From a virus (Duplodnaviria; Heunggongvirae; Uroviricota; Caudoviricetes), in IMG/VR virus record IMGVR_UViG_3300037587_000312, positions 96,552 through 121,737 of that record: a DNA stretch of 25,186 bases; one strand, given 5' to 3'. Under the pieces are notes generated by a model, which saw only the letters and a list, made by a program, of their open reading frames with translations, did no database searches and was not told the DNA's origin. The translations under genes were made by a program, and so were the position numbers. Shown one piece after another: positions 1 to 19,331 of the stretch; position 1 is the stretch's first letter, and each line of letters opens with the position of its first letter.

Positions 1-231
1 TTCACCTGTTGGTAAGTATCTCACCTCTTTCATTGTCGCGCTCTCGAATTCGACGTGCTTTCTGAGACCAACGTCATAATATCGCTTGGAAATAGTGACA
101 TTTGTTAGAGGATCTGGGTATGCCTCACGAGCCTCCTTAGTAATAACCCCTATCAATGTCTCTTTGCAACCAATACCCTTACCCACACCCTTGCGACCAT
201 CGTGCATTAAATAGAACTTGAAGTTTTTCAT
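1..231 (-). CDS. Hypothetical protein, partial (runs off window start)
   Basis: ATG at 231 overlaps the cca stop (ATGA). Open for 77 codons to the edge: MKNFKFYLMHDGRKGVGKGIGCKETLIG... Not in the ORF track. Confidence 0.6.
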   Translation of the reverse strand, partial: MKNFKFYLMHDGRKGVGKGIGCKETLIGVITKEAREAYPDPLTNVTISKRYYDVGLRKHVEFESATMKEVRYLPTGE

Positions 232-1298
232 TTCAATACCTCCTCAATCCGTTTGATACGTTCTTCGCGCATCTTATCACCAATGTCCTTACCTGTAAAG
301 CCCTGATCAATAAACTGTTGAGCCTTCACTGATTTAGCTGCCTGTAGTGCGTTAGACCACCGCCAAAATAACGAGTGTGAAGTCTCGAAGTCTCTAATGA
401 TAACGTCAAGAACACTGAACAGTTCAAGCAACCTTGATGAGGATTCCTTAACCACATTAATATGAAGAAAGAACTCAAGCATAGTTTCTGGTTTAGTAGC
501 CGTGATAGCACCAATAGCAATACCAAGGTGACTAACAGCCTGCTTAAAGCGTGTAGGTGCCTTTATGGCCTCCCCAAGTGCTTCCCCAGTACCGAAGGGT
601 AGGTTCATACAGAAGATAGCCCACAGGAACTCAGGGGATACTCTCTTATTAACGGCGTTGGTTAGCTCATCCTGAATCTTATGGAAGATAGGTATGTCTA
701 TTGCGGATACCTCTGCAAGGATTCTAAGGAATCGCCAAGGTGCCTGCTCAGACAATGCCTTCTCTGTCTCTTTCCAGATACGCTCTGCTGATATTTTACG
801 TACCTGTGGGATAAGACGGTGCATAGTGTGTGCTGTTGCCCTGTCAATAGTCCACTCATCGCCTAGACGAGCAAGGAAACGAGCCACACGAAGGACACGC
901 AAAGGGTCTTCTTCAAATGCCTCAGATGTTGCACGTAGGATCTTATCCTTAATGTCCTGTTGACCACCAAACGGATCGATGACCTCACTAGTGTGCATAT
1001 CCATAGCCATAGAATTGATTGTAAGATCCCTACGCAGCAGATCCTCTTCAAGGGTGACATCCCTCACATCACACTCAAAATCAGTGTGGGAGCTTCCTGT
1101 AGAGATCTCCTTGCGTGCGAGAGCATACTCATCACCTGTTTCTGGATGAAGGAACACAGGGAAGTCCTTACCTACCTGTGTGAATCCTAGTGAGAGCATT
1201 TCCTCTACGGAAGAACCTACCACCACGAAATCCTTATCTTTAGGCTCTAGGCCAAGGAGGATGTCTCTCACGGCACCTCCCACTAGGAATGTTTTCAT
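228..1298 (-). CDS. cca: Class II tRNA nucleotidyltransferase (CCA-adding enzyme) without HD domain
   Basis: LVGGAVRD..KDKDF (DxD), VGKDFPVFLHP, LARKE plus flexible loop, EEDLLRRDLTINSMA, EDPLRVLRVARF and ERIWKE motifs. No HDxGK motif in the C-terminal half. Confidence 0.95.
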   Translation of the reverse strand: MKTFLVGGAVRDILLGLEPKDKDFVVVGSSVEEMLSLGFTQVGKDFPVFLHPETGDEYALARKEISTGSSHTDFECDVRDVTLEEDLLRRDLTINSMAMDMHTSEVIDPFGGQQDIKDKILRATSEAFEEDPLRVLRVARFLARLGDEWTIDRATAHTMHRLIPQVRKISAERIWKETEKALSEQAPWRFLRILAEVSAIDIPIFHKIQDELTNAVNKRVSPEFLWAIFCMNLPFGTGEALGEAIKAPTRFKQAVSHLGIAIGAITATKPETMLEFFLHINVVKESSSRLLELFSVLDVIIRDFETSHSLFWRWSNALQAAKSVKAQQFIDQGFTGKDIGDKMREERIKRIEEVLK

Positions 1299-4515: not shown

Positions 4516-5271
4516 TTAATTTGGATAGGGTATAACTACCCAATTCATAAGTGTATTGTAGACTTCGATAGAGATCTCTCCCTTATTATAACAATCTTTG
4601 GCAACAGTCTTGATATATTTTTCTTTAACCTTTTTATAGGCAGCGAATGCCTGTTCGGGAGAGCTATATGTACCTATGTAGTTTTGGCCCCCACCTTCCC
4701 CTACTTTCGCCTTAAACTTGTTCCTAGACTCAGACACACCTACAGGGTATTTACCCCTAGCCTTATTCCTGCTGGAAAGAAGTGCGTTAATCCGATGGGG
4801 TATGAATTCGCAGGTCGCTTCAGAATACACCATTGAACCCGGCTGGCGCAAATCCTTATCAACGTGAAAACCCTCGATATAATTATCCTCGTACCACCTA
4901 GCATATATCTGAAAATTGTACCATTCCTCACAAACCGTAACACCTCTGCCACCGTAGCGGTGATAGCGGTCATCAGTAATATCGTAACATCTTTCTAGCA
5001 TTCTTTTCCAAACAGCATACGCAGGTTTTTTCTTACAATCAATACTACTGGTGTAAATACCCTCCCCAAAATACCCCACTCCCTGTATGGAGGGTACATA
5101 AGGGTCTTTCACCCCACCTTTACGGAGGCTTCCTGCACCTGTCACGGTTACATACCCTGTATTGGTGAATTCAACGACCACTTTGTAACTATCTATATAC
5201 TCAAGAACCCTACAATCACCATAATTATTAGTTTCAAAAACATCTCCAATCTTAATCCGTAATTTAACCAT
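4516..5271 (-). mobile_element. Free-standing HNH-type homing endonuclease with C-terminal AP2-like domain
   Basis: W..MLERCY..YHRYGGRGVTVCEEW..F, VDKD..YS..TCEFIP..IN, and C-terminal GVS..KFKAKV..YIGTYSSPEQAFAAY. Confidence 0.8.
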
Positions 5272-7017: not shown

Positions 7018-7192
7018 ATTCTTCCCCCAGTGATTTGAAATAATTATCAGTACACTCAGTTAACCACCCGTCATTTGCCTTCCAAGTACTCGCGTAAAAT
7101 TCCCTTACTATATCCTCTAAAGAGGGTTCAGGGCCATATTTTTCTTCAGTTACCTGAGGCTCAATTTTCTTCAATCTATTAAGATCCACCAT
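6986..7192 (-). CDS. Hypothetical protein (68 aa)
   Basis: Start revised to the ATG at 7192, within the HNH 3' end. Confidence 0.55.
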   Translation of the reverse strand: MVDLNRLKKIEPQVTEEKYGPEPSLEDIVREFYASTWKANDGWLTECTDNYFKSLGEEYERQNIQEDS

Positions 7193-7823
7193 AAAATTTC
7201 TCCCATTCATATAAATTCTTAAATTTGCTGTAGTATTTCTCCCCGTCTAGGAGCAAATGCCATTTTGTCCAATCTTGTTGGATATTAACACAGGTTTGTT
7301 TGGCTTGCAACACCTCTGCTCTCTGAATAAGCTCTTTGTGGTACTGGTGATTCGGGAACATCTCACAGTAGAGGTAAGCTGTCCCAAAGAAAGGGTCCAG
7401 TTTAGCCTCTTTAAGGATTCGCATACCTCGCTCAACGATAATCTTAGCGTTAGCTCGGCTCACACCCTGTTTGGTTCCCATAAGAGCCTTAAGCCTCCCT
7501 GAATGGATGAAGCTATGACAAGCATGGCAGAGAGGTACTATCTCCTTGATCCTCATGGACCCTTCTTCATAATCTATGGAATAGTCCTCATGAGCCTCTA
7601 GGTGTTGCTTAAAGAGTGCATCATTTTTATGTGTTCCACAAGCCATACAACGGAAATTATTATCTTCATAAGCTTTCTTGCGAGTCTTGTCCCACCAATA
7701 TTTACCCTTAACTTCTCGGGGAGCTAACCCATGTAGAGGTTTAGGTAAATTTGGATGGGTCAACAGTTCCGGCCTAACAATTTTTGGTGGAAGAACTTGA
7801 ATTTTAGGTTTACTTGGTTTCAT
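7179..7823 (-). CDS. HNH endonuclease family protein
   Basis: RCMACG..LEAHE..VPLCHACHSFIH (Zn-coordinated HNH core). Confidence 0.75.
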   Translation of the reverse strand: MKPSKPKIQVLPPKIVRPELLTHPNLPKPLHGLAPREVKGKYWWDKTRKKAYEDNNFRCMACGTHKNDALFKQHLEAHEDYSIDYEEGSMRIKEIVPLCHACHSFIHSGRLKALMGTKQGVSRANAKIIVERGMRILKEAKLDPFFGTAYLYCEMFPNHQYHKELIQRAEVLQAKQTCVNIQQDWTKWHLLLDGEKYYSKFKNLYEWEKFYGGS

Positions 7824-8956
7824 ATATCTCTCTCTTCAAGTTCTTTAATCATTGACTTAATATCCTGTACAGCACGGCTACGCATATGCTTCTTATTCTT
7901 TATTAAGAATGCTGCAAGCATTTCTTTTACAGGGACTAGTTTTACTGATACTAATTTCTCTAGTTGTTTATTATCAAACAGTTGAAAGAAAGCTTTAGTA
8001 ATTGTTATAGGCTTCAAGCCAGCAGCAATCGCCCGACCAGTGATAACTTTGATTTTACCAACATTCCAATCTTTATTGATCGGATAGGCATCCTTCCCAT
8101 ATTTATCATAGAACCGCTTAATAGAACCTTCTGAAATCTCCTTAGATATCTCAGAAGGTTCTGAATCATAGTAGCCGCCACTGGACCCAATGTTCACATA
8201 ATCATTTACATCAGGACATTCCTCCGATGCCAGATCCATGAGCAGTTCATACTCACCGGCTCGGTTGAGAAGTGAAGTAGCTTCATATCCGATAGTGAAA
8301 GCACTGACTGTCTGACGATCACGATCCAGATTTACAATATCAGGCGCAAAGTTGTAGCTGAAGGCATAGTCCTTTCCTCCGACAGGTTCAAGTCTGCAAA
8401 CAAATAATCCACCAACGTACACACTAGGGGTATTATCTTCAAAAGCATAAGATTCCCCGTCATCGGCTACAATACAGAGAGAATCCTTTATAAGGGTACG
8501 GTTTTGTACCGTATCAATATCTTCACGAGACAACCCATGAATAGTAAACCGGACAGTCTCAAATTCATCAGAGAACGCATCATCAGTAATTCCAATAGTC
8601 AGGCACTCAGCCTCTAATTGAGGGTGTGGCTTCATAAAAGGAATCCATCGTTGAGATCCATTCTTGATAGTAACCCCAATATTCTGACGAGCCAATACCA
8701 ACAAGGCTAATTTATAACCCTCTCCGAATTTACCTCTCATATCAGGGTTATCTGCTTTAGATGTATTACCTAATAGGAGGCTATCCTTCTCCATCACACC
8801 TTTGTGACTCTCGATGCTGATACTACCAGTCTCGTAGCTAATATCAACACTATAATCCCCTTGATCCATAGCATTCTGGATGATCTCTCGGATAGCCTCC
8901 CAAGTCCCCCAGTGTGAAATGTAATTCCGAGATAGTGGTAATGCAATGTATTCCAT
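7820..8956 (-). CDS. GHKL (HSP90/gyrase-type) ATPase domain protein
   Basis: AIREIIQNAMD (N box), LLLGNTSK and RGKFGEGYKLALLVL (G boxes). AAGGAG RBS. Confidence 0.8.
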   Translation of the reverse strand: MEYIALPLSRNYISHWGTWEAIREIIQNAMDQGDYSVDISYETGSISIESHKGVMEKDSLLLGNTSKADNPDMRGKFGEGYKLALLVLARQNIGVTIKNGSQRWIPFMKPHPQLEAECLTIGITDDAFSDEFETVRFTIHGLSREDIDTVQNRTLIKDSLCIVADDGESYAFEDNTPSVYVGGLFVCRLEPVGGKDYAFSYNFAPDIVNLDRDRQTVSAFTIGYEATSLLNRAGEYELLMDLASEECPDVNDYVNIGSSGGYYDSEPSEISKEISEGSIKRFYDKYGKDAYPINKDWNVGKIKVITGRAIAAGLKPITITKAFFQLFDNKQLEKLVSVKLVPVKEMLAAFLIKNKKHMRSRAVQDIKSMIKELEERDI

Positions 8957-9044: not shown

Positions 9045-10598
9045 TTATTCTCCTCGTTGTGAGCGCAGGCGAATCTCAGCCCAAGGTGTTTCTCTCACCA
9101 TCTTACTATCTCGGGCGATAATTGCAAGCTCACCAGTAAGAGCCTCCTCCTCAGTCTGGTTCTCCCACAACCGATACTCTGAACCTTCGCGGCTAACCCG
9201 TAGCAGACCACAAGCAGACTTCTTAGCACCTAGTGCAGTCTTAGGATTCTTCTGCATCGAGACACCTTCACCATTAACAATACTGTGTGTACCTTTAATA
9301 GCAATGCTAAATGAGTCACGAGATGCATCCTTAAGGAATCCCCAAGATCCAGTTCCCATCAGCACGTTTGAAACACACCACCCCTGAGAGACCATAGTCT
9401 CATAGATATTCCACTGCATCTGTGGAGTGATTGCCTCTCCATAAATCAGACCAACTTTAGGATTCAGAATCCGCAGACCTTCATCATTAGTGGTTCCACC
9501 GAAAGTATCCCACAACAACCACAATGCACCCTTACGTTCTGCTGCTGATGCACCATCTGGATCACCACAGATAACCTCAAGAGGTGTCTTAGGTGAAGAG
9601 TCAGGACGGAATACAGCCTTACACAGACCAAAAGAGTCAGGTTGACGAGCAAGGATTTCATCCTTAACCATTGGCAGACCTGTCTCCATCAAACCGAAGA
9701 AATCTTCACTGTCAGCTACATAACTGACAATACCTGTTGGGTAGAGATTAGTATAAACATCTCGTAGTGATTCTACTTCAGCCTGAAGAGGGAATTCATT
9801 GTATCCCAAATTCTTCCGGTAGTAAGCAATCCGTTGAGTTGCAGTGGCATGCTCAAAAGCGTTTACACTCACACCGAGACATTCTTTGTCGCTATCCCCG
9901 TTGTAGTACTCTTCAATACCATCAATCGCCCAAAGGGTATCAGTTCCAATACCAAACAACAAGTGAGCCATAGCGGAGATCATTGAATCCTCCTGTCCAC
10001 GGTGCCCACGACCAGCGAAACAGTGATTTGCAATAGCCAACCATTCAGTAGGAGCGCCACATTTCTCTGCCCAGAACTTACTAGTCTTAAAGTACTGCTC
10101 TGTTACAGTTGCAGCGTTAGCCATAGGCCAATACATACAGGATAGAAATGTCTCACAGTAATTGGTTACCCAATAAAACTCTGGAACAGTATTCCGTACA
10201 GTGAAAACAGGGATACCCATATTTACCTTACAGCCTTCCGGCAAAGCGCGAACTTCAACTGGAAGATATTGCAAGTCATGCAAAGCAGCCATAGCTGCGA
10301 TCTGCTCGTCACCGTGATCTGGCCCAAGATAGTTCTTAACTCGACGAGTGAACTTCTTCATAACCTTCTCTTTCGGTAGAGAAAAGAATGTATCTTCCCA
10401 TTGTTGGAATAGGATCTTTGTTACCATCTCAATACCAAAGTTAACCATCTTACCATCATAATGCTCACGCAATACGTTAGCTAGTCGATCACTTCGTGGC
10501 GTGGCATTAGCTGAAACAGATTCAGTGCCGTTGATATACTGGGAAATGTGGCCCAGTTTATAACCATCTACAATTACATTTTGTGGGATATTTTTCAT
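9045..10598 (-). CDS. Nicotinamide phosphoribosyltransferase-like protein (candidate Namat of NARP1)
   Basis: DGYKLGH..QY, TPRS, LHDLQYLP..ALPEG, WVTNYCETFLS, GTDT, EH, FRPDS, GLIYG, RDSFSIAIK, KNPKT..KKSACGLL. Start revised to 10598 (AGGAG RBS). Confidence 0.9.
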   Translation of the reverse strand: MKNIPQNVIVDGYKLGHISQYINGTESVSANATPRSDRLANVLREHYDGKMVNFGIEMVTKILFQQWEDTFFSLPKEKVMKKFTRRVKNYLGPDHGDEQIAAMAALHDLQYLPVEVRALPEGCKVNMGIPVFTVRNTVPEFYWVTNYCETFLSCMYWPMANAATVTEQYFKTSKFWAEKCGAPTEWLAIANHCFAGRGHRGQEDSMISAMAHLLFGIGTDTLWAIDGIEEYYNGDSDKECLGVSVNAFEHATATQRIAYYRKNLGYNEFPLQAEVESLRDVYTNLYPTGIVSYVADSEDFFGLMETGLPMVKDEILARQPDSFGLCKAVFRPDSSPKTPLEVICGDPDGASAAERKGALWLLWDTFGGTTNDEGLRILNPKVGLIYGEAITPQMQWNIYETMVSQGWCVSNVLMGTGSWGFLKDASRDSFSIAIKGTHSIVNGEGVSMQKNPKTALGAKKSACGLLRVSREGSEYRLWENQTEEEALTGELAIIARDSKMVRETPWAEIRLRSQRGE

Positions 10599-10599
10599 T

Positions 10600-10932
10600 T
10601 TATTTCTCCTTCTCATCAGTATTATCTAGTGTAACTCGTAATTCATTCAGCCGTGTATGTACTTCCTTCAATTTACCCTGAAGTATTGCTTTTGCATACT
10701 CCGCAACCTCGAGACCAACATAGCACCCAGACATATCAATACCTTGTCCTGATCCATCACTGTGTTTGTGGACATGACTATAGTATCCGATATTAAAGTT
10801 TTCAAACCCTCCACTGTCAGGACGGTCATTAGTAATTTCATGGATTGTTTTATCAGCCTCTACTAAAGCTTTCTCGAGCCGACTTTTTAATTTGAACAGG
10901 AATTCCACTTCTGCAAAATCACTTTGTAACAT
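10600..10932 (-). CDS. Hypothetical protein between macrodomain and NAMPT-like genes
   Basis: 110 aa. TAATG overlap with the macro stop, and 1 nt from the NAMPT-like start. Helical ends with a Gly/His-rich middle. Confidence 0.7.
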   Translation of the reverse strand: MLQSDFAEVEFLFKLKSRLEKALVEADKTIHEITNDRPDSGGFENFNIGYYSHVHKHSDGSGQGIDMSGCYVGLEVAEYAKAILQGKLKEVHTRLNELRVTLDNTDEKEK

Positions 10933-11459
10933 TAGGTATCTCCTTGGAGTGAATACATACGATCCTTTGCTGGGATCTCGTTTGGTTTCAGTACGTAAAT
11001 AGTAACGTCATACCCTTTGTCTGTCAACTCTTCTTTGATGATATTCTCGATAATATTCCAATCGCCGCCAGCGAGCTTAGACCCTATTTTAGGGAGACCG
11101 ATTGTTGCAGCAGTCTTGAAATTTCCGAAGCCCATTCTCAAGGAGGATCGGAGAGCATCATAATCAAGATCCATCCGCCCTTCTTTTCTACCCCACCAAG
11201 CGTACTGAGAATATAGGTTCAACACATGGATGCCACCCTCTGGATAAAAGGCATGATACCCGTATGAAAATCCTCCGAGTTTCTCTTTATCCCCTTTTAC
11301 AGTCGCTTGGTCTGCCTCCCAAGCTTCAGGGAACTCCTTAGCGATCAAAGGTGCAATACCACTCTTCATTACATTAAAGCAGTTGCATCCATGACCAATG
11401 ACATCAACTTCCCCATCAAGTGCAGCTTGGATCAGGCTCTTTACTTTATACTTTGACAT
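10932..11459 (-). CDS. Macrodomain (ADP-ribose binding/hydrolase) protein
   Basis: VIGHGCNCFNVMKSGIAPLIAKEFP, VLNLYSQY, IGLPKIGSKLAGGDW. Start revised to 11459 (AGGAGG RBS). Confidence 0.9.
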   Translation of the reverse strand: MSKYKVKSLIQAALDGEVDVIGHGCNCFNVMKSGIAPLIAKEFPEAWEADQATVKGDKEKLGGFSYGYHAFYPEGGIHVLNLYSQYAWWGRKEGRMDLDYDALRSSLRMGFGNFKTAATIGLPKIGSKLAGGDWNIIENIIKEELTDKGYDVTIYVLKPNEIPAKDRMYSLQGDT

Positions 11460-12057
11460 ATTTCCTCCTAAACTTATGACCACAATGGGATTTTCTTTTC
11501 CCGTGAACAACAGCCGATACTAATCTAAAATCGAACCCTTTCTCAGCCATTTCTTTGTTCCCATGTAAAGAGTATAGGTAATTCCCCTCCATATCAAGAA
11601 CTTCTACAGGTGACTCATACCTAGCTGAATCTTTTCCTATCTTGATAACCTTAAGGCCAATACTTATGGCATGCGTTTGATTTTCACTATTGGTACACCA
11701 TTCTAGATTAGAGATATAATTATTTTCCTTATCCCCATCGATATGATTAACCTGCTCTTTTCCTTTAGGATTCGCTATGAATGTCTGGGCGACTAACCTG
11801 TGAACCTTCCTTGTAACAGATTTACGGTTTAATCTCAACCTAATCCTCACATAACCATACTTATCCACTTGTGGTGAAAGCATGTGTCCTTTCAAGACCC
11901 TATCAGGCTTATTATCTGAGTATTGAATAACCCTAGTCACAGATCTTACTGACCCATAAGTAGAAACTTCATAGGCTCCTTGGAATTCCTCAATCGGCAA
12001 CCATACCTCAGACTTTGATGTAGTTAACTCTGTCACGCAACTCCTCTGGAACTTCAT
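11446..12057 (-). mobile_element. NUMOD4-HNH free-standing homing endonuclease
   Basis: EVWLPI..YEVSTYGSVRS (NUMOD4) and VHRLVAQTFI..VNHIDGDKENNYISNLEW (HNH). An in-frame GTG at 12036 preceded by GAGGAG is a likelier start. Confidence 0.9.
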
Positions 12058-12856
12058 CTTGGTCTATAAAACAGTTAGCAACATAAAGTTCATCAATTTT
12101 TCCCATTAAGGAATCAAAACCATCAGGAAGAATGGCGTGGGTTACGTATAGAATAACCTTAGCCGCACCTTTCTCCCGAAGCTTGTCTGAAAGGAACATA
12201 AATGTACCCCCTTTGTCAGCAATATCATCTACAATAACACACACCTTACCAGACACATCACCATAAACTTCAGTCCCTGTGATCTTCCCTGTAGCCGCAT
12301 TACGAACTTTATCAGCTCGAACTACCTCACACCCGCCATACATCCAAGCAAGATCGAGAGTCTTCTTATTAGCACCAGCATCGGGTGATACCAGAACTGT
12401 ATTACCATCAAGGATAATATCTGAAAGATCCTGACAGGCGGGAATAATATTCTTTTGTGGACGATTCACACAATTATCCAGAAGAGCAACCCCTACATCG
12501 CTGTGACAGTCCCAGATTTGGACGCTATCAAACTTTAATCCGTTAATGAGGTCAGTGCATACCTTCAAGGCTAACGCCTCACCAGAGGCACATACGCGAT
12601 CCTGACGGGCATACGGAAGATAAGGCATAACAAGGTTAATTACCTTAGGGTTTCGATCACGGCGGATAGCATCTGTCAAAAGTAGCAATGTCATCAGATC
12701 ATCTGAATTACGTACATGGGCTTCGATACGACAAACCTCATTTCCGTAAATAGGTGCTTGTGATACTTTAACCTGTACTTCTCCTCCACTAAAATTAAAA
12801 ATCTTAACGGATGCCTCTTTCTCGTTGAAATATACCTTAAACTTTTCCATTTTCAT
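12008..12856 (-). CDS. Ribose-phosphate pyrophosphokinase-like protein (candidate Adps of NARP1)
   Basis: FSGGEVQVKV, MPYLPYARQDR, DCHS, VSPDAGA, IVDDIADKGGTF, LYVTH. Shorter N-terminus than cellular Prs. Confidence 0.92.
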   Translation of the reverse strand: MKMEKFKVYFNEKEASVKIFNFSGGEVQVKVSQAPIYGNEVCRIEAHVRNSDDLMTLLLLTDAIRRDRNPKVINLVMPYLPYARQDRVCASGEALALKVCTDLINGLKFDSVQIWDCHSDVGVALLDNCVNRPQKNIIPACQDLSDIILDGNTVLVSPDAGANKKTLDLAWMYGGCEVVRADKVRNAATGKITGTEVYGDVSGKVCVIVDDIADKGGTFMFLSDKLREKGAAKVILYVTHAILPDGFDSLMGKIDELYVANCFIDQDEVPEELRDRVNYIKV

Positions 12857-13386
12857 TCTCCTGATATTAATTTAGTAGCGGAAGCAGTAATCTCTTGTTT
12901 TAGGAACCTATAACGAACTTCGTTCAAATCAATCGGTGTGTAATCAGTTTGCTCCAAGCATATATTAAGATACCTAGGATCGTCAAGTACATGCCCGTGC
13001 GTGTGACCATGAATATTCTTCTTACCTCGCAGTTCATCCGTATGAATAGGTGCATGTGTGATCCAGAACTCCTTGTGCTTATACATAGAGTGGATCTCAA
13101 CAAAAACCTCCAGCATATCACTGATACTAGGTCTTGTTTTGTTATCCGTATCATGATTACCCAAGATTAACACTTTCCGCCCTAGAAGGCCAGCAATAAT
13201 CTCTAGGGATGCTGAGTCGAATGCAATATCACCACCAAAAATAATCTTATCACGCTTAGTCACAACACGGTTGTAATTATCCAAGATTATTTTTGTTCGA
13301 TGCTCAACAGTCTCAAAATCTGGCTGGAATTTAAGTATATTCTTATGACCAATGTGCCAGTCCGAGGTAAAATATAGATTAGCCAT
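12853..13386 (-). CDS. Calcineurin-like metallophosphoesterase
   Basis: SDWH (DxH), GGDI (GD), LGNHD (GNH), THAP, HGHTH. Confidence 0.92.
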   Translation of the reverse strand: MANLYFTSDWHIGHKNILKFQPDFETVEHRTKIILDNYNRVVTKRDKIIFGGDIAFDSASLEIIAGLLGRKVLILGNHDTDNKTRPSISDMLEVFVEIHSMYKHKEFWITHAPIHTDELRGKKNIHGHTHGHVLDDPRYLNICLEQTDYTPIDLNEVRYRFLKQEITASATKLISGE

Positions 13387-14527: not shown

Positions 14528-14801
14528 GTTTATACCTCACTCTTCCCAATGCGTATCCGATTTCATTAGAGGAATACATCCCCTCCCAGAACCGAACATC
14601 ATGTACCTGTATACCACAGATCTGAGTCCACATCTTTTTAGCTTCAACAATGTAGATATATCCACTAGACCACTCGTGAACATATGGTCCCCATAATTCA
14701 GTAGCATTATATTCCTTGAGGACAGCGGGAAAATCCCGCTCGTCCTCTACTACAACCAGAAGCCTTTGGTCCTTTGGTGGGCTATACTCAGAAATCGACA
14801 T
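14502..14801 (-). CDS. Hypothetical protein
   Basis: 99 aa ORF overlapping the Pnk stop. Confidence 0.55.
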   Translation of the reverse strand: MSISEYSPPKDQRLLVVVEDERDFPAVLKEYNATELWGPYVHEWSSGYIYIVEAKKMWTQICGIQVHDVRFWEGMYSSNEIGYALGRVRYKRDSTNQKD

Positions 14802-15705
14802 AAGGATCTGCTACTTGTATTACATTGACCCCTAGCAACCTCAGGTGATTTGAAACTTGCGGTCTATCATCGACCCAAGCACAGATATTGTACTTCTTCT
14901 CCATCTCCCAAAGCATACGCTCTTTGATGACGAAATCTTTCTCAAAGTTGCCCTCAGGACGGATGTAGAAATCATCATATAGAAGATCACCTGCATCAAG
15001 CCACTTTTTAGTTAGTTCCTCCGCAGAGCCATCACGACCTGTCGCGATAATGATCTCATAATCCTTAACTACGAAACCATCTAACATATCGCAAACTTCA
15101 CGACGATAATGGTCCTGATCAACCTTCATCCAATCAAAAGGTCCACGGTTATGCATTGTAGCGAGTGTTCCATCTACATCGAAGACGATTGCATCAGGGA
15201 GGCTGTCATTTTGGACATACTTACGAGCACCTTTGTACTCAAGCCATTGCTGATACTGACGATAGATAACCAAATGACCTACACCACCAAACCGTTGTGC
15301 ATCACGTTTCCACAGAGTGTTCAGATCAACTTCAAACTCTTTGAATTCTACTGAATAGCCCATTTCTGTCAGTTTCAGTACCATTGCGTTACGGTTCTTA
15401 GGATTAAGATTCGTTTCACAAATGATGATGTTCTGACCATTATCAAAAGCCTCTTGGATCTGACGATCCTGAATAACGGTTACTTTTTCCTCATTCTGAC
15501 GCTTGAATTTATAACGAGTCCAATCTTTTACGCCCTTGTTTTGAAGGATATCAGTGAAACGGATAACATCTCGCTCGATGACTACCCAAGGATTCTTATC
15601 AGTATCAATATCATTTAGTGGTTGGGTCCGAACGAACTCATCAACCCAAGTGTTTTTGCCGCATGCACTGCAGCCGATTGTCATAATTGCTTTTAGTTTA
15701 TTCAT
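14788..15705 (-). CDS. pseT: T4 PseT-like polynucleotide 5'-kinase/3'-phosphatase
   Basis: N-terminal P-loop GCSACGKNTW, ERD..R and ETNL. C-terminal HAD domain with FDVDGTL, TGR, KDFVIK and VDDRPQV. Confidence 0.93.
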   Translation of the reverse strand: MNKLKAIMTIGCSACGKNTWVDEFVRTQPLNDIDTDKNPWVVIERDVIRFTDILQNKGVKDWTRYKFKRQNEEKVTVIQDRQIQEAFDNGQNIIICETNLNPKNRNAMVLKLTEMGYSVEFKEFEVDLNTLWKRDAQRFGGVGHLVIYRQYQQWLEYKGARKYVQNDSLPDAIVFDVDGTLATMHNRGPFDWMKVDQDHYRREVCDMLDGFVVKDYEIIIATGRDGSAEELTKKWLDAGDLLYDDFYIRPEGNFEKDFVIKERMLWEMEKKYNICAWVDDRPQVSNHLRLLGVNVIQVADPYVDF

Positions 15706-16354: not shown

Positions 16355-16696
16355 TCAGCTGGCTCCTTCCAAGTCAACATTATTTATTTCCTCTTGAGCC
16401 TTGAGATAATTATGCCATTTACGCCCATTCCCGAGACCGTAATACCATGCTGGTTCACGTTTTCTCATCCAAGGATAATACCAACCATTCCAAATTTCGG
16501 GGTAGTTATCATACAAATCCCAATCTTCAGCTACAAGGTCAATATCCTTAGGATACCAGCCACCACTCCACCCGCTTCTATACGGGTTATAGCGACTGTC
16601 TTCCACATACCTGACGAACTGTTTTGGTGAATGCCAAGCTATGCGCCTAACAGGGTATCCTGCTATAGCGAGTAACATGGCCTCTTCATAGGTCAT
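16355..16696 (-). CDS. Tad2/DUF2829-like protein with aromatic C-terminal extension
   Basis: MTYEEAM..AGYPVRRIAW..WYPKDIDLVAEDW matches the DUF2829 pattern M.F.EAl..G..V.R..W..W.Ps..D.lA.DW. About 50 extra residues follow. Confidence 0.72.
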   Translation of the reverse strand: MTYEEAMLLAIAGYPVRRIAWHSPKQFVRYVEDSRYNPYRSGWSGGWYPKDIDLVAEDWDLYDNYPEIWNGWYYPWMRKREPAWYYGLGNGRKWHNYLKAQEEINNVDLEGAS

Positions 16697-17035: not shown

Positions 17036-17704
17036 ATGTTCCATATTCTATACCAAACCACAAACCTAGTCAACAATAAACTCTATATTGGTGTTCATTC
17101 TACCGAAGATCTTGGGGATGGTTACCTTGGTTCAGGGGTTCATCTCCAACGTGCTGTGAAGTATTATGGCAGAGAGAACTTTGAACGTCAAGTACTTTGT
17201 TTCACTGATTCTGCCGAAGATGCTTATGAAATTGAGGAGCTTATTGTTGACCTAGAGTTCATATCCCGAAAAGATACTTATAACCTAGCTATTGGTGGTA
17301 TTGGAGGAGTGCCTTCCCAGTTTGTTTCTCAGGAAACTAGACAAAAGATGTCTGAGAGTAAGAAAGAATCCTATCAAGGGGAAAATCATCCGCGTTTTGG
17401 GACTAAACATACCCAAGAAACCAAAGATAGGATTTCCTTAACTAAGACAGGTGTAAAACTTTCAGAGGAGGTCATACAAAAGTTGAGTGAGCGTAATAGC
17501 GGTAGCGGAAACCCTAACTTTTCCGGTTACTGGTATACACCCCAAGGTACGTTCGATTCTTGCCTGAAAGCTGGGAAAGCGAATGGGGTTAACCGAAAAA
17601 CTATAGTTAATCGATGTAAACCAACCGAGCCAATCCAAAGACCCCTGAAGTTACGAGGTAGGGCTTGGAAAGAACTCGGTTGGTGGTTCGAACCTAAGGA
17701 TTAA
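17036..17704 (+). mobile_element. Free-standing GIY-YIG homing endonuclease (Seg-like) with NUMOD3 repeats
   Basis: HILYQTTN..KLYIGVH, YLGSG, YGRENF, YNLAIGG, and repeats SQETRQKMSESK, HTQETKDRIS, SEEVIQKLSE. Confidence 0.92.
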
Positions 17705-19029
17705 GAGGCATCTTCCAAATCCACGTTACTTTCTTTGTAGATGCCCTCTAATACGCGGAAACAATATGACTTACTTTTATAAAACTTAGGTGCCATTTTC
17801 TCACCATCCATTCGGATAACAATACCTTCGCTGATGTGACTTGGGTCAGTGAGATCCTCACACATCACATCTCGACGCTCAGTCAATTCATCAACCAGAG
17901 CAGCCAACTTCTCTTGGTCTCCATCATACACGATATCATCATGCACTCGGAAGGTAGACTCTAGACCACGGTCCTTAGCCCACTTGATAACCTGTGAAGG
18001 TGTCATTTCCCAAACAGTTCCATCCTCAAGTGCCTGAGTCACACGGTAAACGAAGAATCGGTTCTGACCTTCATTACATCCATAAGAATAAGTCATAGTT
18101 TCACCATACTTCTTAGTGAACTTCTTATCCTTCATCACATGAGTCCCATGAACACCCATGATAGGTGATCCATTAGCGAATCCTACGATCTCACCATAGA
18201 CAGTCACACCTTTGTCCATAAAAGGCTTCAGCACATTTAACCAATCAAAACGCCACTGTTCAGGACCATTGAATCCAGCCTTCTGCTCCTGACCTTCAAA
18301 TAGGACTACACGACGAGTACCAGCAACATACTGCCAAGACTTTAGGCTAGGCATACCACCAAAGTTCCACTTAAACTTCTCCCACCAAGACATATTATCA
18401 TAGTTCTTCTCAACCAAAGTGTGGCTGTATCGAGCTGAAGTGCCATGCAGTTTGCTGTGGAATGATAATACAGTTCCAACAGGGATAGTCTGCAAGTAAT
18501 ACTTAAACTGCTCAGTATCAACGTGACGAGCAAACAAAGGAGTTTCAACAGCCTTAAGTTGCTTCTTAGCTTGACCTTGTGCCATGGCATTCTTGGTCTT
18601 CTCAGAGACAAACTTCTGGCAGATCTCCTTACCGTCTAAACTGTCAAACTGGAAGCCTTCTACTAGCTTCTCCGTTGCGTCTTCACTGTGTAGGTAACTT
18701 TTCGCACCGATATAATCAAAGAAACTCAATGGGCAAAAATACCCTTCGCTCTTGACTTTGAGGAACGGTTGTGCTCGAACTCGACGGTTATTATCGAAGA
18801 AACCAGCCTTGGTCTCATCCTTATTCTTTTCTGACTTACGGAATAGGTTATTCTCGTGACAGAATTCTTCACTTAATTGCAGATCAGGTTGGAAAAATAC
18901 TCCGATATCACCCACAACAGTATCCTTGCCCACGATAACCGCTTCACCCAGTACGTAAGCGATGTGGATGCGATCTGCACCCTTAATGTCTTCAGTTCGT
19001 GCTACAACAGCTACGATTGCTTTATGCAT
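17701..19029 (-). CDS. ATP-dependent RNA ligase with N-terminal OB-like domain (Rnl2/DRB0094-type)
   Basis: Motif I KLHGTS, III VYGEIVG, IIIa FFVYRV, IV EGIVIR and V FYKSKS; N-terminal GADRI..GDIGVFF. Start revised to 19029 (TAATG overlap). Confidence 0.88.
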   Translation of the reverse strand: MHKAIVAVVARTEDIKGADRIHIAYVLGEAVIVGKDTVVGDIGVFFQPDLQLSEEFCHENNLFRKSEKNKDETKAGFFDNNRRVRAQPFLKVKSEGYFCPLSFFDYIGAKSYLHSEDATEKLVEGFQFDSLDGKEICQKFVSEKTKNAMAQGQAKKQLKAVETPLFARHVDTEQFKYYLQTIPVGTVLSFHSKLHGTSARYSHTLVEKNYDNMSWWEKFKWNFGGMPSLKSWQYVAGTRRVVLFEGQEQKAGFNGPEQWRFDWLNVLKPFMDKGVTVYGEIVGFANGSPIMGVHGTHVMKDKKFTKKYGETMTYSYGCNEGQNRFFVYRVTQALEDGTVWEMTPSQVIKWAKDRGLESTFRVHDDIVYDGDQEKLAALVDELTERRDVMCEDLTDPSHISEGIVIRMDGEKMAPKFYKSKSYCFRVLEGIYKESNVDLEDAS

Positions 19030-19331
19030 TATGTAATCTCCTCTAATATTCTTAATCGTTGTGCCAATACCCACATACCGCCTTGGGATTCAGGTCGTTT
19101 GTGATACTCAAAATCCTCCACCTCCACCTTGTACCATTTACGATCTTTCTCAGACAGGTGAGGGGCTTCAGGACGGAGAGTACAATGCCATCCCGGCCTA
19201 TGAGCATAACCTTTAGTTGGGATATCCTCAGCATCATACCAAACATTCAGTGACAGTCTCTGTCTACGGTTGATGAACAATGGCCCAATGCTACCGTCTT
19301 TCTTAACACTAAACAGTTTGTATCCTATCAC
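19029..19331 (-). CDS. Hypothetical protein coupled to the RNA ligase
   Basis: 100 aa with GYKLF..RPGWHC..APHL..RPESQGGMW motifs. Confidence 0.7.
   Translation of the reverse strand: MIGYKLFSVKKDGSIGPLFINRRQRLSLNVWYDAEDIPTKGYAHRPGWHCTLRPEAPHLSEKDRKWYKVEVEDFEYHKRPESQGGMWVLAQRLRILEEIT

Follow-up and report, generated by a model that had tools for sequence, protein, structure and literature searches.

A probable NARP1-AP operon for NAD+ reconstitution in a large uncultured phage

The six closely packed open reading frames (ORFs) at positions 13386–9045, on the minus strand of the viral DNA stretch analysed here, probably form an operon for NARP1-AP (NAD+ reconstitution pathway 1 together with an associated phosphatase); the uncultured phage that carries the block measures ~122 kb, and the block lies in its early or accessory region. 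The stretch, which we call the window, comprises 25,186 nucleotides and is the final 25 kb (positions 96,552–121,737) of the linear, 121,737-base IMG/VR record IMGVR_UViG_3300037587_000312, whose completeness is estimated at 85%. The core of the block, a Prs-like gene, a macrodomain gene and a NAMPT-like gene, is the NARP1-AP arrangement already described and is not new.

Paired Prs and NAMPT homologues of phages are known as Adps, which makes ADP-ribose pyrophosphate (ADPR-PP) from ADP-ribose (ADPR) and ATP, and Namat, which makes NAD+ from ADPR-PP and nicotinamide (Osterman et al. 2024). Operationally, NARP1 is defined by Prs-homologous and NAMPT-homologous genes lying close together in a phage genome (Osterman et al.). 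A macrodomain protein is present in 15% of NARP1 operons; this protein, Adpp, is an ADPR-1''-phosphate phosphatase and a homologue of yeast Poa1p, and the three-gene NARP1-AP defeats a RES-domain defence whose product is ADPR-1''-P rather than ADPR (bioRxiv 10.64898/2026.01.28.702374, January 2026). How would the operon of the window work? Host immune NADases would cleave NAD+ to nicotinamide and ADPR or, if of the RES type, to nicotinamide and ADPR-1''-phosphate. Adpp would strip off the 1''-phosphate, Adps would use ATP to convert ADPR to ADPR-PP, and the Namat-like enzyme would couple the latter with nicotinamide to yield NAD+.

Are the six genes expressed together? All the long genes of the region are on the minus strand, and each of the six ORFs lies where the earlier note on this DNA had placed it (Table 1). 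The stop codon of the first gene, which encodes a metallophosphoesterase (MPE), and the start of Adps share an ATGA overlap, to be replaced by a 2-nt gap if Adps begins at its likelier start. The ORF of an HNH endonuclease overlaps the 3' end of Adps by 29–50 nt and the start of the macrodomain gene, most likely the ATG at 11459 with AGGAGG in front of it, by 14 nt. The macrodomain gene meets the next, ORF110, at a TAATG junction (1-nt overlap), and a single nucleotide separates the ORF110 stop from the ATG at 10598, the likely start of Namat, which is preceded by AAGGAG. Beyond Namat stands a hairpin with a stem of ~19 pairs at ~9024–8979, followed by TTTTT. It folds with −27.3 kcal/mol (z = −6.7 against shuffled sequences), and none of 200 of these folded equally well. 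A consensus terminator scan restricted to loops of 3–8 nt did not pick it up, probably because its loop of ~9 nt exceeds that limit. Tight junctions and a single strong terminator therefore indicate one transcription unit. The run of six genes ending at a strong hairpin, as first noted, is borne out, its junctions being overlaps or gaps of 1–2 nt. The Adps-like and Namat-like genes fall within 3.8 kb in this unit, on one strand, as the operational definition of NARP1 has it.

Gene families were assigned with Pfam, PHROGs and NCBIfam. What sets the Prs-like protein apart from a true Prs? It reaches none of the NCBIfam Prs equivalog cut-offs (in one case 141 bits where 297 are required), while passing the ribP_PPkin subfamily model (149 against 113 bits), and in a tblastn comparison it is 40% identical to the Adps locus of Vibrio phage Gary. 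The published hallmarks of Adps are an acceptor site of Arg87, His121, Asp161, Asp212, Asp213 and Asp216, the catalytic Lys185, and a lid of Phe221 and Phe223 on a remodelled PP loop (PMC12774641, PMC13586617). The protein of the window holds R87 (or R84), H118, D159, D210, D211 and D214 together with the catalytic K183; its PP loop reads DDIADKGGTFMF, with F219 and F221 as the lid, and the donor-loop pattern DDI-x-D-x-GG-T-F-x-F is kept. It is the predicted Phe lid and the failure of all the Prs equivalog models that carry the discriminating weight.

The Namat-like protein finds its best solved match in the Namat of Bacillus phage SPbetaL1 (9w5w; E 6.5e-84, 285 bits), far ahead of human NAMPT (E 1e-33, 119 bits) and of 7yqo, a ‘Pre-B cell enhancing factor related protein’ (96 bits). 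Vibrio phage Gary has an Adpp that has been purified and tested, and with this enzyme the macrodomain protein shares 46% identity (E 7e-34). The Pfam Macro model responds weakly to the single sequence (E 0.045); a profile of its family matches the structures of BT1257 (E 4e-22), TARG1 (E 2e-15) and Poa1p (E 5e-13), as well as SCO6735 and DarG, and the protein can be aligned with the NARP1-associated macrodomains in Table S1 of the Adpp study (bioRxiv 10.64898/2026.01.28.702374). Its gene lies between Adps and Namat with just the HNH insertion and ORF110 intervening, inside the two-gene proximity by which NARP1-AP is recognized. We infer that it encodes an ADP-ribose-1''-phosphate phosphatase of the TARG1/Poa1p/DarG class.

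The whole 121,737-base record was searched for genes that would point to other routes to NAD+. NARP2 is marked by an NMNAT gene, as a rule fused to Nudix. The record contains no NMNAT (PF01467) or Nudix (PF00293) gene, whereas all 14 genomes used as controls were positive; nor does it contain a gene for NAD synthase (NadE, PF02540), for an isochorismatase of the PncA kind (PF00857) or for a RyR domain (PF02026). The matches to Adpp, Namat and Adps, taken with these absences, are why we read the operon as NARP1-AP. The earlier note had proposed a Prs-like/NAMPT-like pair of the NARP1 type and had suggested placing both proteins among their characterized relatives as a check. The family matches, the solved Namat and the failed equivalog models agree with that proposal: the Prs-like protein lies below all the Prs equivalog models, in phrog_619 and with an Adps-type Phe lid, and the NAMPT-like protein is nearer to SPbetaL1 Namat than to NAMPT. 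Its preference for NARP1 over NARP2 on the strength of a missing NMNAT, drawn from the window, extends to the entire record.

The closest tested counterpart is the NARP1-AP of Vibrio phage Gary (Adps gp181, Adpp gp182, Namat gp183; bioRxiv 10.64898/2026.01.28.702374), which has the same three families in the same order on a single strand. Against it the macrodomain is 46%, Adps 40% (tblastn) and Namat 34% identical. In Gary, too, the gene of a distantly related MPE (26%) stands three genes upstream of Adps, whereas the MPE gene of the window is directly coupled to Adps. Unlike Gary's, the operon of the window has Adps separated from Adpp by the HNH gene and Adpp from Namat by ORF110, and its Namat carries HCF and GSWGFL..SRD where that of Gary carries HDF and GSFTYQYVTRD. 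Gary's system is experimentally tested; that of the window is known here from sequence alone. The NARP1 systems of SPbetaL1 and E. coli phage Bas63 (Osterman et al. 2024; PMC12774641, PMC13586617) share the Prs-like and NAMPT-like pair and the Adps donor-loop pattern. They consist of two genes and no phosphatase, whereas the window has Adpp, and the SPbetaL1 Namat has both the canonical Asp and a GSFTYQYNTRD clamp, which the Namat of the window lacks. How regular is the arrangement? An Adps alignment was used to draw 80 loci from IMG/VR, our NARP1 sample; Namat adjoins Adps in 79 of them, and a macrodomain is present in 16, in agreement with the published 15%.

Several points weigh against the NARP1-AP assignment. 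What we observe are gene identities, operon architecture and the frequency of each gene beside the pair; the activity of every enzyme in the operon is predicted by homology. The residue test for Adps is weak because most of the residues also occur in true Prs. The absence of NMNAT is not proof, because the record is 85% complete. The class to which the macrodomain belongs also includes TARG1 and DarG, which remove ADP-ribose from protein and DNA. Finally, the Namat departs from the published signature, GS-X-phi-X-phi-X-phi-TRD. Its clamp, GSWGFLKDASRD, has Trp at position 3, Phe at position 5, one extra residue, a non-aromatic position 7 and SRD for TRD, where the commonest form among the Adps-paired Namats that we collected is GS[YF]T[YF]Q[YFH]xTRD. 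Elsewhere in the protein HDF is the reading in 72 of 86 aligned sequences of Adps-paired Namats, and its Asp we take to be the residue that reads the nicotinamide amide in human NAMPT; the window has HCF. The characterized Namats with which it was compared, those of SPbetaL1 and Gary, fall outside its subclade. The two variant motifs (HCF and GSWGFLxxxSRD) are at residues ~197–204 and 420–433.

Could the pair instead serve classical salvage, the Prs-like enzyme making phosphoribosyl pyrophosphate (PRPP), the NAMPT-like enzyme making nicotinamide mononucleotide from nicotinamide or another pyridine, the host completing NAD+ and the macrodomain being otherwise employed? The ribP_PPkin score, the Cys in place of the pyridine-site Asp, an adenine clamp that is kept in part, and the weak PRPP-dependent activity that Namat retains in published work would all fit. 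We nevertheless hold it to be highly improbable. Every Prs equivalog model fails, the protein is much nearer to the solved Namat than to NAMPT, and its subclade is accompanied by a Prs-like gene in each relative checked. A homologue of an ADPR-1''-P phosphatase between the two genes makes sense only with ADPR as the substrate, and the Adps of SPbetaL1 did not use PRPP chemistry in a published test (Osterman et al. 2024). A nicotinate-type variant of NARP1, which the Cys might suggest, was rejected, the NadE and PncA genes not having been found in the record.

HCF together with the variant clamp is common to Vibrio phage 1.187.O, Aeromonas phage CC2, Pseudoalteromonas phage H101 and the relative L170, and in all four a Prs-like gene is paired with the variant Namat. 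Since each relative shows this pairing, the variant subclade is a regular NARP1-type partner. A second HCF group, in phages of ~146–153 kb (L012, L018, L031, L032, L034, L082), has the canonical clamp. The Cys-type subclade could possibly have an altered specificity for the pyridine or for ADPR-PP, a suggestion that gene adjacency alone supports. The Namat of L170 (L170:5553-7334) is 80–83% identical to that of the window and has an insertion of ~80 aa after residue ~354, possibly a mini-intein or a domain inserted there.

What role might be played by the MPE, whose gene opens the operon? Its metal-binding motifs are all intact (D9xH11, GD53, GNH78, H111 and GH128xH130), and its nearest solved structure is 1xm7 (Aquifex aq_1665; E 4e-27). 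It belongs to a family found in 1,877 phage records, including T5-like and N4-like coliphages and KVP40-like phages; these three groups are not known to carry NARP1. The earlier note had envisaged a larger funnel, in which the MPE converts phospho-ADPR (for example 2'-phospho-ADPR from NADP+) and the macrodomain releases ADPR from DNA, protein or signals, both feeding Adps and Namat. An intact active site accords with this, as do the overlap of the MPE stop with the Adps start and the retention of this juxtaposition in L170, where the MPE is 67% identical and occupies the equivalent position before Adps. TARG1 and DarG, moreover, are within the macrodomain's fold class. In the NARP1 sample, ‘nearby’ meaning within 10 kb, a true MPE occurs in 13 of 80 loci, roughly twice as often by our rough estimate as a naive random model would give, and it abuts a NARP1 gene in four arrangements: MPE then Adps (L044 and also L092), Namat then MPE (L053, L084), and Namat, macrodomain, MPE (L040). 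Other counts speak against a dedicated role. In the 80 closest loci of the window's own MPE subgroup, retrieved with a profile built from short members, Namat is near in 6 and Adps in 4, so that 74 have no Namat in reach, and the MPE has no constant neighbour, the largest neighbouring family appearing in 10 of the 80. Seven of 10 long NARP1 contigs that lack an MPE within 10 kb have none in the record, the other three having one 28–80 kb away. Nor does the MPE track the macrodomain, which is present in 3 of the 13 loci with an MPE against 16 of all 80, and both two-gene NARP1 and NARP1-AP function in published assays in the absence of any MPE (Osterman et al. 2024; bioRxiv 10.64898/2026.01.28.702374). 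The nearest characterized relative of the macrodomain is a phosphatase and not a glycohydrolase. The funnel in its original form is therefore unlikely, and neither of the two activities it assigned is supported: the published Adpp to which the window's macrodomain is 46% identical removes a phosphate, and the MPE family lives mostly apart from NARP1. What does stand is the notion of an accessory enzyme that widens the substrate range, shown by others for the macrodomain (bioRxiv 10.64898/2026.01.28.702374), the roles having apparently been swapped between the two proteins. In the neighbourhood comparison that the earlier note had called for, L170 keeps both genes beside the pair and the 80-locus sample shows each in a minority.

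RNA repair offers another context for the same two genes: the MPE would act on ends that carry a 2',3'-cyclic phosphate, healing them, and the macrodomain would dispose of ADP-ribose-phosphate formed as a by-product, in the manner of Poa1p in the splicing of yeast tRNA. An RNA ligase gene and a Pnkp gene are just upstream, in an order kept in L170; an MPE is fused to an RNA ligase domain in L020, and in phages Gary and MAG1 an MPE gene is near an RNA ligase gene. The MPEs of L020, Gary and MAG1, however, belong to another subgroup, 23–27% identical to that of the window, whereas among the 80 loci of the window's subgroup an RNA ligase occurs in two and a Pnkp in two. The macrodomain gene, for its part, is sandwiched within the NAD+ operon. 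We give very little credence to this reading, and the candidate role of the MPE as an RNA-repair enzyme was rejected, the link to RNA repair holding solely for the other subgroup. The L020 fusion is a 524-aa ORF (L020:3427-5001, minus strand) of an uncultured phage, joining an MPE (residues 3–187) to an RNA ligase domain (231–429), 4.9 kb from a NARP1 pair.

Setting RNA repair aside, we return to the NARP1-AP operon, in which the MPE is predicted to be co-transcribed and translationally coupled with Adps. We regard the MPE as a floating accessory enzyme of phages, active-looking to judge by its intact motifs, and not as a regular component of the pathway; that it has any role related to NAD+ or ADPR is doubtful. 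One such role would be the repair of a leak. ADPR-cyclic-phosphate, a decay product of ADPR-PP, has been seen to build up in infected cells (Osterman 2024). The MPE could open it to ADPR-1''-phosphate, from which Adpp would then make ADPR, by a logic like that of yeast Cpd1 and Poa1p in the processing of ADP-ribose 1'',2''-cyclic phosphate. In both cases a phosphodiesterase, here a candidate, goes with a macrodomain phosphatase, here a Poa1p-like one (Poa1p profile E 5e-13). Cpd1, however, is a 2H phosphoesterase and the candidate of the window a metallophosphoesterase. This role is suggested by adjacency alone, the missing correlation between MPE and macrodomain argues against it, and we think it improbable. 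SPbetaL1 (OQ921341.1, L175/L176) has a distant MPE homologue at 1027–1575 and its Adps and Namat genes at ~130.3–132.5 kb of a 133.5-kb linear record; they would be ~2 kb apart if the ends of the record were joined.

Does the HNH gene belong to the pathway? L170 has the order MPE, Adps, macrodomain, ORF110, Namat, and its Adps leads straight into the macrodomain gene; the P0003 contig (2.3 kb), which holds the nearest ORF110 homologue, likewise has no HNH gene at this junction. Because both lack it there, the HNH gene is an insertion and not a member of the pathway. We read it as a selfish homing endonuclease, predicted to have landed between Adps and Adpp and to play no part in the pathway. 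In Pseudoalteromonas phage H101 an HNH gene unrelated to this one separates Adps from Namat. The window holds at least four homing-endonuclease genes within 14 kb, at 11446–12057, 7179–7823, 4516–5271 (minus strand) and 17036–17704 (plus strand), three of them HNH and one on the opposite strand. A search of the phage collection for near-identical DNA gave no match to the window, and a single-protein search of IMG/VR with Namat gave none either; relatives such as L170 were obtained solely through alignments and protein collections. Relative to the window, L170 shows identities of 74% for the RNA ligase, 72% for Pnkp, 67% for the MPE, 48% for Adps, 49% for the macrodomain and 80–83% for Namat.

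What, then, is ORF110? A tblastn search of 50,697 phage records found no match and a word-indexed search a single homologue. An exhaustive HMMER profile search recovered 145 representative clusters (E ≤ 1e-3), nearly all of ~100 aa and aligned end to end, which overturned the idea that ORF110 is an orphan. Members of the family conserve a motif in their middle part, D-GG--GF--GY----S-H-DGSG---DL-GCYVG-E, and ORF110 matches no Pfam or PHROG family. A structure model built from 60 sequences (pLDDT 92.6) pairs two long helices in antiparallel fashion and carries a beta-hairpin at their tip. Fold searches with it returned no significant match: the best Foldseek hit was prefoldin beta (E 0.2), and a VIA search gave coiled-coil hairpins at Z 9.8, under the level that is meaningful for helical proteins. 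The modelled likeness to prefoldin beta is one of topology only. ORF110 was also considered as an enzyme or as a RyR protein of the RyDEP kind. RyDEP is a RyR-domain protein that acts on ADPR signals as a glycosidase or a sponge. Mycobacteriophage DyoEdafos combines it with NARP1 (bioRxiv 10.64898/2026.05.28.727677), and its concept is the same as that of NARP1-AP, an accessory protein making ADPR from an ADPR derivative that is not itself a substrate. In contrast to RyDEP, the record has no PF02026 gene, and ORF110 is modelled as a helical hairpin tipped by a beta-hairpin; with no PF02026, Pfam or PHROG match and only generic helical hairpins from the fold searches, both candidates were rejected. 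ORF110 has a strongly conserved loop and no tryptophan; aRad1, a small inhibitor of aRES, by description, is known for a loop reaching into the active site and for a conserved Trp.

Nor does its genomic setting tie ORF110 closely to NAD+. It is found inside the NARP1-AP operons of the window, L170 and the P0003 contig, at two different positions and with no consistent neighbour across the three. Homologues on P0004, P0005 and P0008 sit between genes for the ribonucleotide reductase (RNR) small subunit and an Rnl2 ligase, and none of 160 IMG/VR Adps or MPE loci has a member. Because the contexts are mixed and none of those loci holds a member, the link with NARP1 is lineage-specific. We take ORF110 to be a small coiled-coil protein, not an enzyme and possibly a binder; members of its family could conceivably bind and block a host NADase, which gene adjacency alone suggests. 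In P0077, P0097, P0118 and P0141, proteins of 336–407 aa, an ORF110-family domain is N-terminal and is followed by two to four Big_2 Ig-like repeats.

The surroundings of the operon are set out in part in Table 1. Upstream on the same strand are genes for an RNR large subunit, a ClpP-like protease, an RNA ligase, a Tad2-like protein and a T4-type Pnkp; downstream are the gene with a weak HATPase_c_3 match, an HNH gene, an RlmN-like gene, other radical-SAM genes and a CCA-adding enzyme. The Tad2-like protein, encoded 3 kb upstream of the NAD+ operon, is likely to be an anti-Thoeris sponge, and it is because of this gene that we regard the neighbourhood, an accessory region, as a counter-defence one too.

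Table 1. Positions in the window of the operon genes, the terminator and selected neighbouring genes.
Feature	Position	Strand	Details
Metallophosphoesterase (MPE)	13386-12853	-	177 aa, aq_1665-like; PF00149 E 2.7e-5, phrog_547 E 1.8e-55
Adps (Prs-like)	12856-12008	-	Pribosyltran_N, Pribosyl_synth; phrog_619 E 1.5e-78; likely start ATG 12850
HNH homing endonuclease	12057-11446	-	NUMOD4 and HNH_3 (Pfam), PHROG match
Adpp (macrodomain)	11459-10932	-	ORF open from 11510; phrog_335 E 4.7e-53
ORF110	10932-10600	-	small, predicted helix / beta-hairpin / helix protein of an unnamed phage family
Namat-like	10598-9045	-	longest ORF from 10616; phrog_448 E 1.5e-147
Intrinsic terminator	9024-8974	-	hairpin and T-run; from sequence and fold energy
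First gene past terminator	7820-8956	-	378 aa, phrog_6077; weak HATPase_c_3 (GHKL ATPase), E 2.2e-4, below cut-off
Pnkp, T4-type	14788-15705	-	kinase and HAD phosphatase; RNA repair set
Tad2-like protein	16355-16696	-	113 aa; PF11195 E 3.1e-7, residues 1-61
RNA ligase, PHA02142-type	17701-19074	-	RNA repair set
tRNA nucleotidyltransferase (CCA-adding enzyme)	228-1298	-	RNA repair set

The block is largely one further NARP1-AP operon, and its main use lies in annotation: where genes of large marine-type phages bear the labels Prs, NAMPT and ‘phosphatase’, these are better read as Adps, Namat and Adpp. A family of small phage proteins without a name, with at least 145 clusters, now has a confident fold model. 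The subclade of Namats with Cys for Asp and an altered clamp spans T4-like phages of Aeromonas, Vibrio phage 1.187.O and Pseudoalteromonas phage H101. The MPE of the aq_1665 type abuts NARP1 in several unrelated arrangements, which is how Adpp too was first noticed; leak repair, if true, would provide a role for the MPE and a second role for Adpp.

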